A model generated the notes under the pieces. The model was given only the letters and a program-made list of their open reading frames with translations, did not search any database and was not told the DNA's origin. A DNA stretch of 64,000 bases from Vicinamibacterales bacterium. GTDB taxonomy: Bacteria > Acidobacteriota > Vicinamibacteria > Vicinamibacterales > JAMQPK01. Below are positions 41,745 through 47,740 of the stretch, piece by piece; position 1 is the stretch's first letter, and each line of letters opens with the position of its first letter. Position numbers and translations under genes: made by a program. Where the stretch lies: assembly GCA_035281225.1 (NCBI GenBank), contig DATEEI010000097.1, positions 16,496 to 80,495 on the forward strand, read 5' to 3'.

Positions 41745-41772
41745 CAGCTGCCAGCTACCAGCTGCGAGCTTG
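41745..41772. repeat. heptad array cagctgc cagctac cagctgc gagcttg (left flank of the four-helix-bundle gene)
   Basis: Read directly. Begins 4 nt after the permease stop. Reverse complement of the array at 42224-42251. Confidence 0.8.
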
Positions 41773-41841
41773 CAGAGCGTCACGGCCCGAAAACTGCACC
41801 TCAGACTAGCCAGAATCGCTAGATATTCAGGAGGCTCTGCG

Positions 41842-42213
41842 ATGCAGGACTTCAAGAAGCTTGTGGTGTGGCACAAATCTCACAACCTGGTCTTGGACGT
41901 GTACGCAAAAACCGCAAGCTTTCCGAAGGCGGAGATGTTCGGCATCACCGCTCAGGTGCGACGCGCTTCGGTGTCGATCGCGGCGAACATCGCCGAGGGC
42001 AGCTCAACTGGGAGCGACAAGGAGTTTGCGCGCTTTCTGCGAGTCTCAGCCGCGTCTGCCAGCGAGGTCGAATATTTTTCGATCCTCGTCGTGGACCTCG
42101 GACTATTGGATGTGCGAGCGGCCGACCGATGGGGACGAGATGTATCTGAAATCAGACGAATGATCTTCGGACTATTAGGCACCTTCTCAAAGCCAAAGTC
42201 GCATCCGCCCTGA
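41842..42213 (+). CDS. four-helix-bundle protein (23S rRNA intervening-sequence / S23-like family)
   Basis: ATG 41842 is preceded by AGGAGG. 123 aa, MQDFKKLVVWHKSHNLVLDVYAKTASFPKAEMFGITAQVRRASVSIAANIAEGS..EVEY, which is typical of this family. Confidence 0.85.
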   Translation: MQDFKKLVVWHKSHNLVLDVYAKTASFPKAEMFGITAQVRRASVSIAANIAEGSSTGSDKEFARFLRVSAASASEVEYFSILVVDLGLLDVRAADRWGRDVSEIRRMIFGLLGTFSKPKSHPP

Positions 42214-42223
42214 ACCAAACCGG

Positions 42224-42251
42224 CAGCTGGCCACTGGTAGCTGGTAGCTGT
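42224..42251. repeat. heptad array cagctgg ccactgg tagctgg tagctgt (right flank, inverted relative to 41745-41772)
   Basis: Read directly. Ends at the sigma-factor stop codon (42252). Confidence 0.8.
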
Positions 42252-42890
42252 CTAGTTCCTCTTCGCCGCCAGGTCCGTGGTCAGCCGCTTGACCGCGCGG
42301 TTCACGGCCATTCTGGCGGCGTCGACGGTGCGCAGTCCAAACCGGTGGGCGATCTCTGCAAGGCTCCACTGCACTTCGATGCGGCCGACGACCAGCTCGC
42401 GGTCTTTCGGCGAGAGGCGAGACAGCCCGTCACGATAGTGCTCGTAGGCCTCTTCCTGAATGGCAAACTCGAGCGGAGATGTCCGGTCTGACGGATGATC
42501 GTCAGGCAGCTCGAGCGGCGGTGGCTGGCGGACGATGCGCCGCACTTCGTCACGGATCCGGTTGATCACCGATTGGCGCAGATAGGCCTGCATGGCCCCG
42601 ACGTGCCGCGGCTCGAACGTGTCGAGGTTGTTGATGGCGTGCATTGCCGCCTCCTGAACCAGATCGCCCGTGTCCATACGGCCGCGCGCCGCTGCGGGGA
42701 GGCGGCCATGAGCCCATCGCTTGAGCGGTGGCAGGCAGCGCTCGAGCAGGGCTTCCATCGCCGGCCGGTCTCCACCGCGTGCACGCACGATCAGCTCCAT
42801 GGTCGGCTCATCGCTCAGCAGGAGCTGGGGCGCAGGCTCATTCTCCGCAGGATACTCAGGCTTCGTCATCGCGTGTTCGAGCAGGATCAT
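42252..42890 (-). CDS. ECF-type RNA polymerase sigma factor (ECF43-like, kinase-associated)
   Basis: Sigma2 region ..LKRWAHGRLPAAARGRMDTGDLVQEAAMHA.. and sigma4 ..WSLAEIAHRFGLRTVDAARMAVNRAVKRL. Start placed at the MILLEH.. ATG (42890). The longer track ORF (to 42962) would overlap the divergent kinase gene. Confidence 0.82.
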   Translation of the reverse strand: MILLEHAMTKPEYPAENEPAPQLLLSDEPTMELIVRARGGDRPAMEALLERCLPPLKRWAHGRLPAAARGRMDTGDLVQEAAMHAINNLDTFEPRHVGAMQAYLRQSVINRIRDEVRRIVRQPPPLELPDDHPSDRTSPLEFAIQEEAYEHYRDGLSRLSPKDRELVVGRIEVQWSLAEIAHRFGLRTVDAARMAVNRAVKRLTTDLAAKRN

Positions 42891-42949
42891 AGCTTCTCCG
42901 GTCAGAAACTCGGTATCGAGTATTCTTCCGAGCTGGTGGCCGGTAGCTG

Positions 42950-43861
42950 GTGGCTGAATCAATGATTGGGCAAACCGTTTCGCATTACATAATCGTAGGT
43001 AAGCTTGGGGTCGGCGGCATGGGGGTCGTTTACGATGCCGAGGATCAGCACCTCCCCCGCAGGGTTGCCCTGAAATTCCTGTCCGAGGAGCTCGCCGGGG
43101 ACGCCGACGCGACGCGACGCCTGAAGCGAGAGGCGCAGATCATCGCGCTCCTGAACCATCCGCACATCTGCACGGTGTACGAAATCGCGGAGCACGAAGG
43201 CCGTGCCTTCATCGCGATGGAGCGTCTTGACGGCAGGACCCTCAAGGCGCACATGGCGCGCAAGGAGCTCGAAACGGCGGAGATTCTCGGGATCGCGCTT
43301 CAGATTGCCCAGGCGCTCGAAGCGGCGCACGCCAAGGGCATCGTCCATCGCGATATCAAGCCTGGAAACATTTTTGTCGATGAAGGCGGGCGCGTGAAGG
43401 TGCTGGACTTCGGCTTGGCCCGGCGTCTTCCAAACCCTGCAGAACACAGCGTCGCGACACCGACCGACGGATCGACGATACCGGGCCGGCCGGTTGGAAC
43501 CGCGAGCTACATGGCGCCCGAGCGGATTCTGCAGTTGCCGCTCGACCCGCGCTGCGATCTCTTTTCGCTCGGCGTTGTGATCTACGAGATGGCCACGGGG
43601 AGGCTCCCGTTCGCGGGCGCCTCCCCTGCCGAAACCGTGACCAACATCCTCGAACGGGAACCGATCCCTGCGACGCAGCTTTCACCGGACCGGCCGGGAC
43701 AGCTTGACCGTATCGTGACCAAGCTCGTCGCCAAGCGCGCGGAGGACCGGTACGAGTCGGCCGGTGCCCTGCGCACCGATTTAGAGGCGCTTCGGAATCG
43801 GTCGAGCCTTCCGCTGATTAAACGTGTGCTTGGCAGGTGGTTCGCTACCAGTCGACCCTGA
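42950..43861 (+). CDS. Ser/Thr protein kinase, soluble kinase-domain-only
   Basis: 303 aa. [43 protein letters not shown]. Start is GTG 42950 or ATG 42962. Confidence 0.9.
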
Positions 43862-44201
43862 CTTCCCAAGGTCCTTTTGTTCCCTTGGTGATCTCCTCCT
43901 GCGTCCGTGGAATGGCGGGTACGCGAATGTCGAGCTCGTAGTCATCGGTCGGCGCATTCTTGCTCAGGTACGCAAGCAGGTCGGCCAATGACTTTCGTCC
44001 TCCCTGTCCGGTGAATCTCAACCGCACTCGCAAATAACCCCGATGGCCTTTGCCGGCAGAATTGCCTTTTCCGTCCGTTCCTTCGCCAATCAGTTCCACC
44101 GGTATCGGATCGCGCCCGGTAATCGTTGTGTCCCCAGCGCGATCGGAGTGCGAGACCGCCCAGTGCATGCTCTCGTTGGTGCCAAAGTTTCCAGATCCCA
44201 T
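43845..44201 (-). CDS. hypothetical small protein downstream of the large kinase
   Basis: 118 aa with a strong SD (GAGGAGGG, 4 nt before the ATG). No family recognised. The 3' end overlaps the convergent kinase gene by 17 bp. Confidence 0.55.
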
Positions 44202-44273
44202 TTAACCCTCCTCTAATGAGCCATAAACCCAGGGTGACGAACCGTACAACGAACGAAGTGGAGATCTTGAACA

Positions 44274-47200
44274 TCATTCGACCAACGGCCGAATTGTCGC
44301 TCTCGAAACGAAGCGGCTTCGGTACTGCTCGGAAAGCGAACTTCGAATCTGCGCAATGAGCTTCGTGGCAGAGGAACGTTCGGTGGCAGCCGCGATCGTT
44401 TCTCCTCGCCGCGCGAGCGCCAATCCGCGCCAATAGTGCGCTTGCGCGTTCAACTCAGGCCCGACCGTCACGCTCCCGAGCTCTAACGTGCGGAGGACTT
44501 TGGCATATTGCCGCTCCTGAAACTCCTTCCGCGCCCGTTGGAGCGCGCACTCGGCCCGCACGTGAGCCTTATGGAAGGATCTCAACGCTGCTGACTCCAC
44601 ACCAAGATAACATTGAGCTACCAACGTGGCGGCGCCAGGTACATCTCTCACGGCTGACGCGACCGCGTGCTGAAAATGCGTTCGTGCGGCGTCGGGTGAT
44701 CCGGACTCCAAAGAGAGCTCACCGAATGATTCGTACAGCTGCGGCGCAAGCCTCATTGCTCCGGTCGACTCGACCTGCGCCAGCGCCTGTTCGAGATGCT
44801 GCTTCGCACCGTCAAAGTCTCCCAGACGAACGAGCACACGGCCCAACGTGATGTGCACCTCAGGGACGCTGCTGTCAGAGGCCAGTGCGTCCACGAGAAT
44901 CGTGCGAGCGCCCTCGTAGTCGCTCTGCAGAACCGCGACGTCCGCCGTAGTAACTCTGAGCAACGTCAGCCGGTTCTTCAGGTCACGTTCCGTCGCTATG
45001 CTCGTCGCCTTCTGCAGAATTCGCCGCGCCTCAGCTAGACGGCCTGAAGCCGCTTCGCTCTCACCCTGAACCTGCATCGCAAAGACCTCAAAATCCGCGT
45101 AGCCCAGCTTGCGGAACGTGGCGAGCGCATTCGTGAGACGATGTGTGACCTCGGCGGGATCGAGCCCGAGCACAATCTGCAAATTCACCGCAGTCACTTC
45201 AAGCTCCGCAGCGCGGCGCTCGTTGCCTATCTGTCGGTAGACATCCCGGCTGCGCTCGTAATACGCGACCGCCTCGGAAGTGCGACCCATCGCTTCCTGA
45301 GCAACGCCGAGATTCATCAAGGCGACTCCCTCCAGACGTCGGTTTCCCACCTGCACGCCGCGGGAGAGAGCCTCCTGAAATGACTGCGCTGCCGCCGGGT
45401 AATTGGGTTCCCGAGCGGCTGCCAATCCAAGGTACTGATGGATCCGGGCAAGCCCATACGGGTAACCGAGCGATCTAAAGATCTCGTGCGCTGTCTCTAT
45501 TTCCGCTCTTCCTGCCTTCAAATTGCGCTGTTGGAGAAGTGCGTCAGCGTGACACAGTAGCGCTTGCGCTTCGCCCCCCCGATTGCCGGAAGTACGAAAA
45601 GCCCTCAGCGCGATTTGTGCGTGTCGCTCCGAGAGCGGATAGTCATCGAGAAAGGCGTATAGCTGACAAAGATCGACGTGCACACGTCGGTATTCAGGAT
45701 CGACCGCAAGCACGCGATGGTACGCTTCGACGGCAGGCTCGTTCCGGTTTTGTCTCTTAAGAAAATCAGCAAGTTCAATTTGCAGAGAGGGATCGTCGGT
45801 ATGGAGGCCACTCAACTCGCGGTAGAAGTGCTCCGCGCTTGTGAGATTGTTCTGGCTCTCCGCAAGAACGGCAGCGGCAAGGACAGCGCTGGATCTCGGC
45901 GTGTGGGCGCCAACGAGCTGGGATCCCGCTCTCGCCGCAGCCTCCGCGCCTTTCAGATCGCCCAATAGAAGTGACGTCTTGCTCAGCCATATGTAACTGA
46001 GAACGCGTTGCCCATCCAGCTCAACCGCGCGCATGAACGCGGCACGCGCGGTGCCATACTCCAGCTGTTCGTAGGCGTTCGAGCCCTCCTCGAACGCTCG
46101 AGCGGCCTCAAGCGTCGGGAAGCGCGCGGCTTCCGCGTTGGTCGTCGGTGGCCGATGCGGCCAATTGAGCTTGAACTGCGCCTGAATCCGCGAGGCCAGC
46201 GCCACCATCAATCGCTGAGCCGTCTCTTGGGGCAACGCCGAGGTGATGGAGTCGGTTCGGACGGTGGCGATATTTGTTCCGGTCTCCACATTCCGTACCT
46301 CCGCTTCCGCAACCCACGCTCCGTCGCGGTACTCGAGCGCTGGAACGATCAGAAATCTCACCCTGGCATCGCGGGCGATGGCTTGAATCGCATCCCGGCC
46401 TGATATGTCGCCGGCGCCGAGCAGATATCCGCGAAGAGCCTCAAGCAGACGCGAGTAAGTGGTAACACGCAGATTTGGCGAGTCCCGGAGTTCCCCGATC
46501 AACGATTGAGTCAGGGTCAACCGATACGCATCCAGAGCGCGCTCACCCGTATGATTCGCCACCGGCACGATAGCGATCGGCGTGCGGGGCAATGGCCTGG
46601 CGAGCCAGAGATAACCAGCGGCTGCACCGATGGCGAGCACGGTCGCTGCCACCACCACCGCCATCGTTCGCGAGCCACGCCGTATTCTTCCCTCTGCCCT
46701 CTCCCCTCTCCCCTCTCCCCTCTTCCCTCTTCCCTCTTCCCTCTGCCCTCTTCCCTCTTCCCTCTGCCCTCCCCCCTCCACCAGCACCGCTTCCGTCCGC
46801 ATGTCGAGCGGCATGCTGCGCCCTTGCAGGTGCCGCAACGCGCGGCAGAGGTCTCTGGCGTTCTGATACCGCTCGGCCGGATCCTTGGCGAGCGCGCGCC
46901 GGACGATCGGCACGATACCTTCAGGGAGGTCCGGCACCGTATCATCGAGCGGCGCAGGCTCCTCATTCTTGATAGCGTAGAACACCGCTTCCGGATAGGA
47001 CCCCTTGAACGGGCCGCCGCCCGTCAGCATTTCGTAGAGCACGACGCCGAGCGCCCAGATATCGCTGCGCTCGTCGGCTTCCTCGCCCCGCGCCTGCTCC
47101 GGCGACATGTACGCGACCGTACCGATCGTCGATCCTTCGAGCGTCAGCTTGAGCGCCGCGTCTGCAAGCTTCGCGAGCCCGAAGTCCAGAATCTTCACGC

Positions 47201-47573
47201 CGTCTTCGGTGACCACGAGGTTGCTGGGCTTGATGTCGCGATGCACGACACCCTGCGAATGCGCCTTCGCCAATCCTTCGGCGATCTCCGCGGCGATCTC
47301 GACCGCCTCCGCGGCAGCCAGAGGGCCCTGCTCGAGCTTCTGCTTCAGCGTCGGCCCGTCATAGTGGGCCATCACGATGAACAGCTGTCCGTCCGCGGTC
47401 TGCTCGACGTCGTGAATGATGCAGATATTCCGGTGATTCGTCGCAGAGGCGGCTTGCGCCTCCCGAAGGAACCGCTGCTTGGCGCCGGCGTCGTGGCACC
47501 ACTGCGGTGGCAGAAATTTGAGGGCGACGGCGCGCTCGAGCTTCGTGTCGCGCGCCAGATACACGACTCCCAT
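44274..47573 (-). CDS. membrane Ser/Thr protein kinase with extracytoplasmic domain and TPR repeats
   Basis: HRDIKPSNLVV, DFGLAKL, YMSPEQ; a single TM helix MAVVVAATVLAIGAAAGYLWLA; then a TolB_N-like segment and more than 10 TPR-like repeats. The ATG at 47573 falls inside the Gly-loop (..GGGG-MGVVY), so the true start must be upstream (see findings). Confidence 0.88.
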   Translation of the reverse strand: MGVVYLARDTKLERAVALKFLPPQWCHDAGAKQRFLREAQAASATNHRNICIIHDVEQTADGQLFIVMAHYDGPTLKQKLEQGPLAAAEAVEIAAEIAEGLAKAHSQGVVHRDIKPSNLVVTEDGVKILDFGLAKLADAALKLTLEGSTIGTVAYMSPEQARGEEADERSDIWALGVVLYEMLTGGGPFKGSYPEAVFYAIKNEEPAPLDDTVPDLPEGIVPIVRRALAKDPAERYQNARDLCRALRHLQGRSMPLDMRTEAVLVEGGGQREEGRGQREEGRGKRGEGRGERAEGRIRRGSRTMAVVVAATVLAIGAAAGYLWLARPLPRTPIAIVPVANHTGERALDAYRLTLTQSLIGELRDSPNLRVTTYSRLLEALRGYLLGAGDISGRDAIQAIARDARVRFLIVPALEYRDGAWVAEAEVRNVETGTNIATVRTDSITSALPQETAQRLMVALASRIQAQFKLNWPHRPPTTNAEAARFPTLEAARAFEEGSNAYEQLEYGTARAAFMRAVELDGQRVLSYIWLSKTSLLLGDLKGAEAAARAGSQLVGAHTPRSSAVLAAAVLAESQNNLTSAEHFYRELSGLHTDDPSLQIELADFLKRQNRNEPAVEAYHRVLAVDPEYRRVHVDLCQLYAFLDDYPLSERHAQIALRAFRTSGNRGGEAQALLCHADALLQQRNLKAGRAEIETAHEIFRSLGYPYGLARIHQYLGLAAAREPNYPAAAQSFQEALSRGVQVGNRRLEGVALMNLGVAQEAMGRTSEAVAYYERSRDVYRQIGNERRAAELEVTAVNLQIVLGLDPAEVTHRLTNALATFRKLGYADFEVFAMQVQGESEAASGRLAEARRILQKATSIATERDLKNRLTLLRVTTADVAVLQSDYEGARTILVDALASDSSVPEVHITLGRVLVRLGDFDGAKQHLEQALAQVESTGAMRLAPQLYESFGELSLESGSPDAARTHFQHAVASAVRDVPGAATLVAQCYLGVESAALRSFHKAHVRAECALQRARKEFQERQYAKVLRTLELGSVTVGPELNAQAHYWRGLALARRGETIAAATERSSATKLIAQIRSSLSEQYRSRFVSRATIRPLVE
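46691..46781. repeat. 13 tandem heptads CCCTCTN inside the kinase CDS
   Basis: cctctgc cctctcc x3 cctcttc x3 cctctgc cctcttc x2 cctctgc cctcccc cctccac. Translated on the minus strand as GGGQREEGRGQREEGRGKRGEGRGERAEGR. Confidence 0.9.
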
Positions 47574-47740
47574 ACCGCCGCCGCCAAGTCTGGCGTCGAT
47601 GCGGTACTGCGCGATGGTGGTGCCGATTAGCGGGTCGTGAGGACTGTGGTGCAGGAGCGGTAGCCTAACACAGAGCTTGCCTTGCCGAATGTTGGAGGTA
47701 TGATCGCCGTTTATCCCTGACTTTCGGAGGACTCACGTCT

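Follow-up and report, generated by a model that had tools for sequence, protein, structure and literature searches.

How might a Ser/Thr kinase govern an ECF sigma factor that already carries the acidic residues of its sigma2.2 motif? Direct sigma phosphorylation is a recently established principle and is understood only for ECF43, where the phosphate substitutes for missing acidic residues. In that group the sigma2.2 DxxD motif is replaced by uncharged residues (consensus QTTA; STTA in EcfP, QATE in EcfK), and the phosphorylated Thr is the third motif residue, where 88% of members carry a Thr; the phosphate restores the charge for contact with the beta-prime clamp (PMC13147305, PMC8999054). 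According to reviews, the acidic motif is retained in other kinase-linked ECF groups, which must work in another way. The locus described here, part of a 64,000-nucleotide stretch of DNA from a Vicinamibacterales bacterium (the window), is a concrete system for that question (Table). With moderate confidence, we read its sigma factor (P0001) as an intact member of a large, uncharacterised, mainly Vicinamibacteria family that is coupled to kinases, distinct from ECF43 and competent for core binding. The kinases would most likely tune it by phosphorylation, and the module appears to be rewired or partly decayed in this genome.

Table. Features of the sigma/kinase locus, numbered from the first letter of the window
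Feature	Position	Strand	Evidence or remark
ECF sigma factor gene (P0001), 212 aa, sigma2 and sigma4 only	42252..42890	minus	TIGR02937, PF04542, homologues
sigma2.2 motif D73-T74-G75-D76-L-V-Q-E	42651..42674	minus	alignment of 150 representatives
71-bp divergent spacer: heptad array (42930-42957) and deletion junction (about 42918/42919)	42891..42961		alignment with relatives
soluble Hanks-type Ser/Thr kinase (P0002), 299 aa: kinase domain and ~20-aa basic/hydrophobic tail	42962..43861	plus	PF00069, 2e-51
118-aa ORF, downstream of TPR kinase	43845..44201	minus	no family found; fast-evolving ORF at same position in relatives
GTTC-N16-CGTT promoter-like site, GTTCAAGATCTCCACTTCGTTCGTT, upstream of 118-aa ORF	44248..44272	minus	weak candidate; only such site left in locus
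membrane TPR receptor Ser/Thr kinase	44274..47627	minus	orthologues 42-81% identical adjoin sigma/soluble-kinase pair
four-helix-bundle (23S rRNA IVS protein) gene	41770..42213	plus	PF05635, 9e-32

The sigma gene lies within a minus-strand reading frame (42252-42962) that runs for 236 aa from a TTG and contains ..GRMDTGDLVQEAAMHA.. and ..AARGRMDTGDLVQEAAMHA.. Translation probably begins at the ATG at 42890: a GGAG stands 5 nt ahead of it, close homologues have lengths of 210-214 aa and the same ATG is found in all aligned orthologous loci. The product scores 61.6 bits against TIGR02937 (cut-off 42.9), as an ECF (sigma-70 group 4) factor should, and also matches PF04542 (Sigma70_r2), with weak r4 matches; its homologues overall number in thousands. 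Three substitutions at otherwise invariant sites are unique to the window's sigma, all of them conservative and amounting to no excess. A family-model search of the products of the neighbouring genes found no anti-sigma family, in agreement with an earlier note on this DNA, which had reported that no anti-sigma gene lies nearby.

That note had also described the sigma as ECF43-like, with DTGD in place of the acidic motif, and had seen in it the sequence signature expected for the EcfP mechanism. The DTGD sequence is indeed present, and the Thr codon lies where the note had placed it, at 42669-42671 (Thr74, acg on the minus strand). In the sigma2.2 helix this residue directly follows the N-cap Asp and, by helical geometry, sits on the L77/V78 face. 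The motif itself is not replaced: D73, D76, Q79 and E80 are all kept, and only the variable third position (G75) is non-acidic. Since these four residues are retained, P0001 would be able to bind RNA polymerase without being phosphorylated. Of the hallmarks of ECF43, the locus has the co-occurrence with a Hanks kinase and the lack of an anti-sigma gene. It has neither an uncharged replacement of DxxD nor a Thr at the third motif position, which is Gly here and variable in the family, the conserved Thr being second.

Profile models point the same way. P0001 gives no match to PF07638, even at E<=10, and none to TIGR02999. The genome holds about 21 sigma-70-family genes, and two others, on contigs C13 and C85, each immediately precede a kinase gene. 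Their motifs read QATA-LVHE and QATA-LVNE, and they match PF07638 at 1e-51 and 1e-52; against TIGR02999 (cut-off 126 bits) the C13 sigma reaches 189. We take PF07638 and TIGR02999 to correspond to ECF43, the one backing for this here being the QATA motif of these two matching paralogues. Judged from its sequence, then, P0001 is probably not a member of ECF43, being set apart by both its motif and these models, and the EcfP signature that had been read into it is absent.

A full HMMER scan gave 307 family representatives (50% identity clusters, E<1e-30), and residue frequencies were taken from an unbiased alignment of the best 150 of them. Among these best 150 of 307 representatives, position 73 is D/E/N in 96%, position 74 is Thr in 95% (Ala 5, Ser 1), position 76 is Asp in 99% and position 79 is Gln in 96%; position 75 is variable (D 37, G 32, E 18, also A and Q). 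The family signature across the same 150 representatives is [D/E]-T-x-D-LVQ[E/D]. Thr74 is kept equally in orthologues and in paralogues without an adjacent kinase, so its conservation does not track kinase adjacency.

The family as a whole is closely associated with kinases. In a sample of 69 family copies from 50 genomes of the class, a kinase domain is encoded nearby in about 84%. It lies within 600 nt in 37 of the 69: downstream and in tandem in 33 of these, divergently in 3 (the window's orthogroup) and upstream in tandem in 1. In a further 21 or so it lies 1.2-2.2 kb downstream on the same strand, and about 10 copies have no kinase domain within the flanking DNA examined. Natural sigma-kinase fusions occur in 3 of the 150 representatives. 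The tandem kinases of the family have in common an N-terminal segment of about 60 aa, 'IADGxxIDW..AE....LAEVHR', which has no Pfam match and might serve for sigma docking or be an anti-sigma-like domain. Neither the soluble kinase nor the TPR kinase of the window has this segment, so they may be tied to the sigma in a way that departs from the usual one in the family.

The soluble kinase starts either at a GTG at 42950 (303 aa) or, more likely, at the ATG at 42962, which is favoured because its orthologues all begin with MIGQT or MVGTT. The Gly-rich loop, the catalytic Lys (VALK), HRD, DFG and YMAPE are all present, as in a genuine Hanks kinase, and these catalytic motifs are conserved in 7 orthologues that are 63-87% identical. 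The earlier description of a divergent, kinase-domain-only protein of 303 aa at a distance of 59-71 bp therefore stands in its essentials, with 299 aa the more probable length and an ATG-to-ATG spacer of 71 bp. The TPR kinase, reported at 44274-47573, is also there, and extends beyond that frame: its first canonical ATG is at 47573, but the reading frame stays open ahead of that codon and there encodes the kinase N-lobe (..LIGTTIAQYRIDARLGGGG). Ahead of the Gly loop no in-frame ATG, GTG or TTG was found, and upstream of the N-lobe there is only a non-canonical ATC at 47627. The absence of a canonical start is common to a 91%-identical relative that has both the promoter and the target gene described below, so this may be a real non-canonical start. 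Equivalents of the 118-aa ORF are found in five related loci (L052, L054, L056, L057 and L059).

Orthologues of the window's sigma were found in Vicinamibacterales metagenome-assembled genomes (MAGs), in two layouts. Loci with kinases have the order EF-G2, TPR kinase, small ORF, soluble kinase divergent from sigma, sec (a small secreted-type gene, see below), (four-helix-bundle gene), MacB, MacB, MacA. In 11 loci both kinases are absent, and EF-G2 is divergent from sigma, which is followed by sec; in an additional kinase-less clade (L074-L079) sec is divergent from sigma. All three genes (sigma, soluble kinase and TPR kinase) stay together in about 10 Vicinamibacterales MAG loci and also in the deep orthologues G025 and G100 (69% identity), where all other neighbours differ. 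Since the trio travels together, the earlier suggestion that two kinases could converge on this sigma is reasonable. In L057 and L058 the TPR kinase is relocated and the soluble kinase is still divergent from the sigma.

In a maximum-likelihood tree the orthogroup has support of 100/99. Rows with kinases occupy a basal, paraphyletic position, and those without kinases fall into two clades (support 100/99 and 94/94). The simplest reading of this topology is that kinase linkage is ancestral in the orthogroup and has since been lost at least twice. Ancestral linkage in turn supports a functional tie between the sigma and the kinases. The kinase-less clades retain the sigma with its DTGD, the autoregulatory promoter motif and sec, which argues against obligate activation by neighbouring kinases; the persistence of the sigma without them is as expected for a sigma with an intact core-binding motif.

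What the sigma might control can be read from phylogenetic footprints. Of the 31 related loci scanned, 25 carry a motif tGTTC(A/G)G-N14/15-(A/G)CGTT(A/G)TTAC at 70-145 nt ahead of the sigma start, and it is also found in G025 and G100. A second site, GAGTTCG-N16-CGTTAACTACA, stands ahead of nearly every copy of sec found. This gene encodes a 127-aa small signal-peptide protein with no family beyond a weak DUF2911 match, and lies just downstream of the sigma in most loci, with 1-2 copies in relatives. This is the layout of a classic autoregulated ECF sigma with an adjacent target, and the conservation of the sites suggests that the sigma is autoregulated and that sec is a member of its regulon. 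In relatives, the sigma would thus autoregulate from tGTTC(A/G)G-N14/15-(A/G)CGTTA and drive sec from the second site. We also considered sec as a hidden anti-sigma factor; this was rejected, since it has only about 7 cytoplasmic residues before its signal/TM segment and no anti-sigma domain.

Taken together, these results favour a model in which the sigma can by itself bind core polymerase and the kinases do not switch on a dead sigma as PknT does EcfP. Its ancestral partners, the divergent soluble kinase and the membrane TPR receptor kinase, would most likely tune it by phosphorylation, for which Thr74 is the foremost candidate site, and a relay from receptor to soluble kinase may operate between them. 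Such phospho-modulation is plausible on the genomic evidence. The alternative that survives best, though we think it unlikely, is that Thr74 is structural and that the sigma is not a kinase substrate at all: the kinases might instead phosphorylate some other factor, be part of the regulon or bind the sigma without modifying it, and output would be set mainly by autoregulated transcription. Thr74 could indeed be purely structural, given that it is invariant with or without an adjacent kinase, that the acidic motif is intact and that the kinase-less clades keep everything else. The other conserved hydroxyls, T30 and S138-P139, were disfavoured as alternative phosphosites: they fall in helix N-cap motifs (S/T-x-x-L and S-P-x-E) with free mixing of Ser and Thr, and by structural reasoning such N-caps are typical of any ECF sigma, which again suits a structural role. 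However, Ser and Thr interchange freely at those sites and not at position 74, and a residue that served only for capping or hydrogen bonding would not usually show such a strict preference for Thr over Ser. Moreover, the high proportion of kinase-linked copies, together with the natural fusions, makes a direct physical relationship likely, and direct phosphorylation is the mechanism shown in the only kinase-linked ECFs that have been studied.

The window differs from its relatives in several respects that bear on the present state of the module. Compared with its closest relatives (L056, L064 and L054, with sigmas 91-92% identical), it has a clean gap of about 47 bp over ..cctGTTCGGGTTTCGTCCGTCAGACGTTATTACCC.. 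The segment lost in this apparent deletion is precisely the autoregulatory promoter; of about 28 orthologous loci, the window's alone shows the gap, whose junction adjoins the heptad array. The earlier note had singled out that array as a feature of the divergent promoter region; it is present, with heptads at 42935-42956, but is nothing special to the site, since these heptads recur throughout the window (15 matches, where 0.14 would be expected). Arrays of this class are found genome-wide, and at the divergent spacer only in the window's closest relatives. In addition, sec is absent from the window's locus, and its only paralogue elsewhere in the genome (contig C72) is 43% identical. The four-helix-bundle gene lies directly after the sigma stop, at the position of the relatives' sec, flanked by heptads at 41745-41770 and 42234-42250. 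No sigma-70-type promoter emerged from a scan of 42150-44350, and a whole-genome PWM scan for the sigma's own promoter returned chance-level matches only, the top ones being C80:126189 (inside an ORF) and C40:122685 (intergenic).

With the autoregulatory promoter deleted and sec missing, the module here would be transcriptionally rewired or partly decayed, perhaps in early decay, with the sigma and soluble-kinase frames intact. A stronger version, in which the module is decaying in this genome and the pair is a remnant with little or no current function, ranks behind a structural Thr74 and strikes us as rather doubtful. The unique promoter deletion, the loss of sec from the locus to leave only a 43%-identical paralogue, the TPR kinase without ATG, GTG or TTG before its Gly loop, and the failure of the PWM scan to find any site clearly above chance would all fit it. 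Yet the sigma and soluble-kinase ORFs are undamaged, with unique changes that are conservative only, and the lack of a TPR-kinase start extends to the relative whose promoter and sec are in place. The deletion, seen in one MAG assembly beside a repeat, could be an assembly artefact. Furthermore, the GTTC-N16-CGTT site upstream of the 118-aa ORF persists; similar sites occur at the corresponding distance in L051/L061 and L060, two further lineages that carry the kinases, and are absent from L054 and L059.

Within the preferred reading of a competent, kinase-tuned sigma, a more specific proposal can be framed, which we put forward only speculatively and rate below decay. The [D/E]-T-x-D family might represent a second mechanistic class, in which phosphorylation of Thr within an intact acidic motif would grade the affinity of a competent sigma for RNA polymerase up or down, with input from a relay running from the TPR receptor to the soluble kinase. 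Least probable of all, and in our view improbable, is an obligate phospho-switch like that of EcfP, with a sigma unable to bind RNA polymerase until Thr74 is phosphorylated by the adjacent kinase or kinases: conserved kinase adjacency without an anti-sigma gene, a Thr74 that is almost never Ser and so fits the Thr preference of Hanks kinases, and the one negative charge missing at Gly75 would suit it, but the four core-contact residues of the motif are retained where ECF43 is without them and has its phospho-Thr at position 3, position 75 is itself D or E in 37% of the family members aligned (best 150 of 307), two kinase-less orthologue clades keep the sigma, promoter and target gene, and the ECF43-type models fail to match. 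Kinase adjacency and a Thr near DAED are thus insufficient to infer the EcfP mechanism. What the system offers is an abundant soil-bacterial family with a near-invariant Thr in an intact motif, a predicted promoter and target to serve as reporter, and kinase-less relatives as controls.

How does this module compare with known ones? The ECF43 pairs EcfP/PknT of Vibrio parahaemolyticus and EcfK/PknS of Xanthomonas citri are alike in having no anti-sigma factor, an adjoining Hanks kinase and a Thr in the sigma2.2 DxxD region. In contrast to the D-T-G-D-LVQE of the window's sigma, with its Thr second, ECF43 has H or N at the position of the Gln. The studied ECF43 systems have one transmembrane kinase, whereas the window has a divergent soluble kinase and a separate TPR kinase; in the genome's own QATA pairs the kinase is in tandem. 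Mycobacterium tuberculosis SigH is a precedent of another kind, being a PknB substrate despite an intact acidic motif, without phosphorylation acting as an on/off switch of core binding (PMC13147305). Unlike the window's sigma, SigH has a dedicated anti-sigma factor, RshA; it is phosphorylated within the sigma2-sigma4 linker, and its kinase is not a genomic neighbour.

Among family models, the best matches of P0001 are TIGR02984 (Sig-70_plancto1; 85.8 bits, over the N-terminal half only, with the cut-off of 183.75 not reached) and the ShbA-like NF007230 (71.3 bits; cut-off 209). Sigmas of these types share with P0001 a long connector between helices 2.1 and 2.2 that ends in a DxxD-like motif. 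Among solved structures, a sequence search turned up a single weak match, chain F of PDB 9isn (ShbA-like, E=7e-6), whose motif is F-V-E-D, with no Thr. A closer parallel is offered by ECF59, ECF61, ECF62, ECF217 and ECF283, which are kinase-linked and without an anti-sigma factor, several of them keeping a DAED-like motif with a Ser/Thr in or near it (Casas-Pastor et al. 2021; PMC8999054, PMC7826278). The accounts of kinase-linked ECF groups in these sources make no mention of a [D/E]-T-x-D signature (PMC8999054, PMC7826278), and the named examples come from Planctomycetes or Actinobacteria, whereas the present family is found mainly in Vicinamibacteria (Acidobacteriota). Likened by description, these groups are the category that fits the family best.

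A gene that accompanies the sigma factor in related loci encodes a conserved 127-aa signal-peptide protein, here termed sec (..TYFTFS..VQLPGV.LPAGTYIFE...VKAWFP...GREFIY), which matches DUF2911 weakly and otherwise fell into no family that we could find. It is duplicated in many of its loci, and the promoter-like element GAGTTCG-N16-CGTTAACTACA lies upstream of every sec copy found in L051-L054 and L059-L072, that of L060 excepted. Sec is probably the main target of the sigma factor. It is missing from the window at 42214-42251.

Coordinates of the features in the window, in related loci and elsewhere in the same genome
Feature	Location	Remark
sec gene	loci L051-L054 and L059-L072	directly downstream of sigma
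Heptad arrays, CAGCTAC/CAGCTGC type	window 41745-41770, 42234-42250, 42935-42956	
118-aa ORF	window 43845-44201	past TPR kinase; positional equivalents in relatives, fast-evolving
GTTC-N16-CGTT site	window 44248-44272	upstream of 118-aa ORF
Tandem ECF sigma -> Ser/Thr kinase pair, PF07638/TIGR02999 type	contig C13:5591-7583	own genome, outside window
Tandem ECF sigma -> Ser/Thr kinase pair, PF07638/TIGR02999 type	contig C85:27264-30718	own genome, outside window

A second candidate for regulation is the 118-aa ORF, whose equivalents share a G-rich N-terminus (..S[VM].W..) and a C-terminal ..I.V.W. Since GTTC-N16-CGTT occurs approximately 45-65 nt upstream of the ORF in several lineages, it may be sigma-dependent.

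Heptad arrays stand on either side of the four-helix-bundle gene and adjoin the sigma gene at both ends, with arrays at matching positions in L054 and L056. The array in the kinase-sigma spacer is restricted to the nearest relatives of the window. Because this array immediately adjoins the 47-bp promoter deletion, we suggest that the heptads mark or promote local rearrangement.

Repeats are also found within the TPR-kinase coding sequence, where 12 tandem 7-nt units (plus-strand TCTTCCC; window 46686-46771) give rise to an EGRGxRE juxtamembrane repeat in the protein. The first ATG of this kinase falls downstream of its N-lobe (..PLIGTTIAQYRIDARLGGGG), which is encoded in the same reading frame within a region (window 47574-47732) that contains no in-frame ATG, GTG or TTG; the only plausible start is the ATC at 47627. 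In L054, a 91%-related locus, the gene call begins at the same internal ATG.

The records for L068 (CAYHHH010000099.1) and L073 (CAZCEL010000636.1) are titled 'uncultured Bifidobacteriaceae'. Their locus shows approximately 80% identity and synteny with Vicinamibacterales (EF-G, sigma, sec, four-helix-bundle gene and MacB), and they probably represent mis-binning or mislabelling of public MAGs. Separately, the orthologous sigma gene is broken into two frames in two MAGs (L077:6001-6568 and L080:6001-6619), near residue 62-70 and just ahead of the DTGD motif; the gene is there either a pseudogene with a frameshift or a product of misassembly.

Kinases in tandem with the sigma family have in common an unannotated N-terminal segment of approximately 60 aa (L..L...IADGxxIDW..AE......L..L..LAEVHR), which precedes the kinase domain or TM segments and was found in kinases downstream of family sigmas at L033, L034, L039-L050 and L084-L123. 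This segment may be a sigma-docking domain or a degenerate anti-sigma domain. In three family proteins, P0137 (709 aa), P0223 (699 aa) and P0262 (949 aa, also carrying TPR repeats), N-terminal sigma2/sigma4 regions are followed by a Pkinase domain in one polypeptide; each is either a natural fusion of sigma and kinase or a gene call that reads through. The kinases of the C13 and C85 pairs carry an 'RWRRLDRIF..AL' N-terminal extension together with membrane or sensor regions, and their partner sigmas read QATA-LVHE and QATA-LVNE in sigma2.2, the uncharged motif of the ECF43 type.
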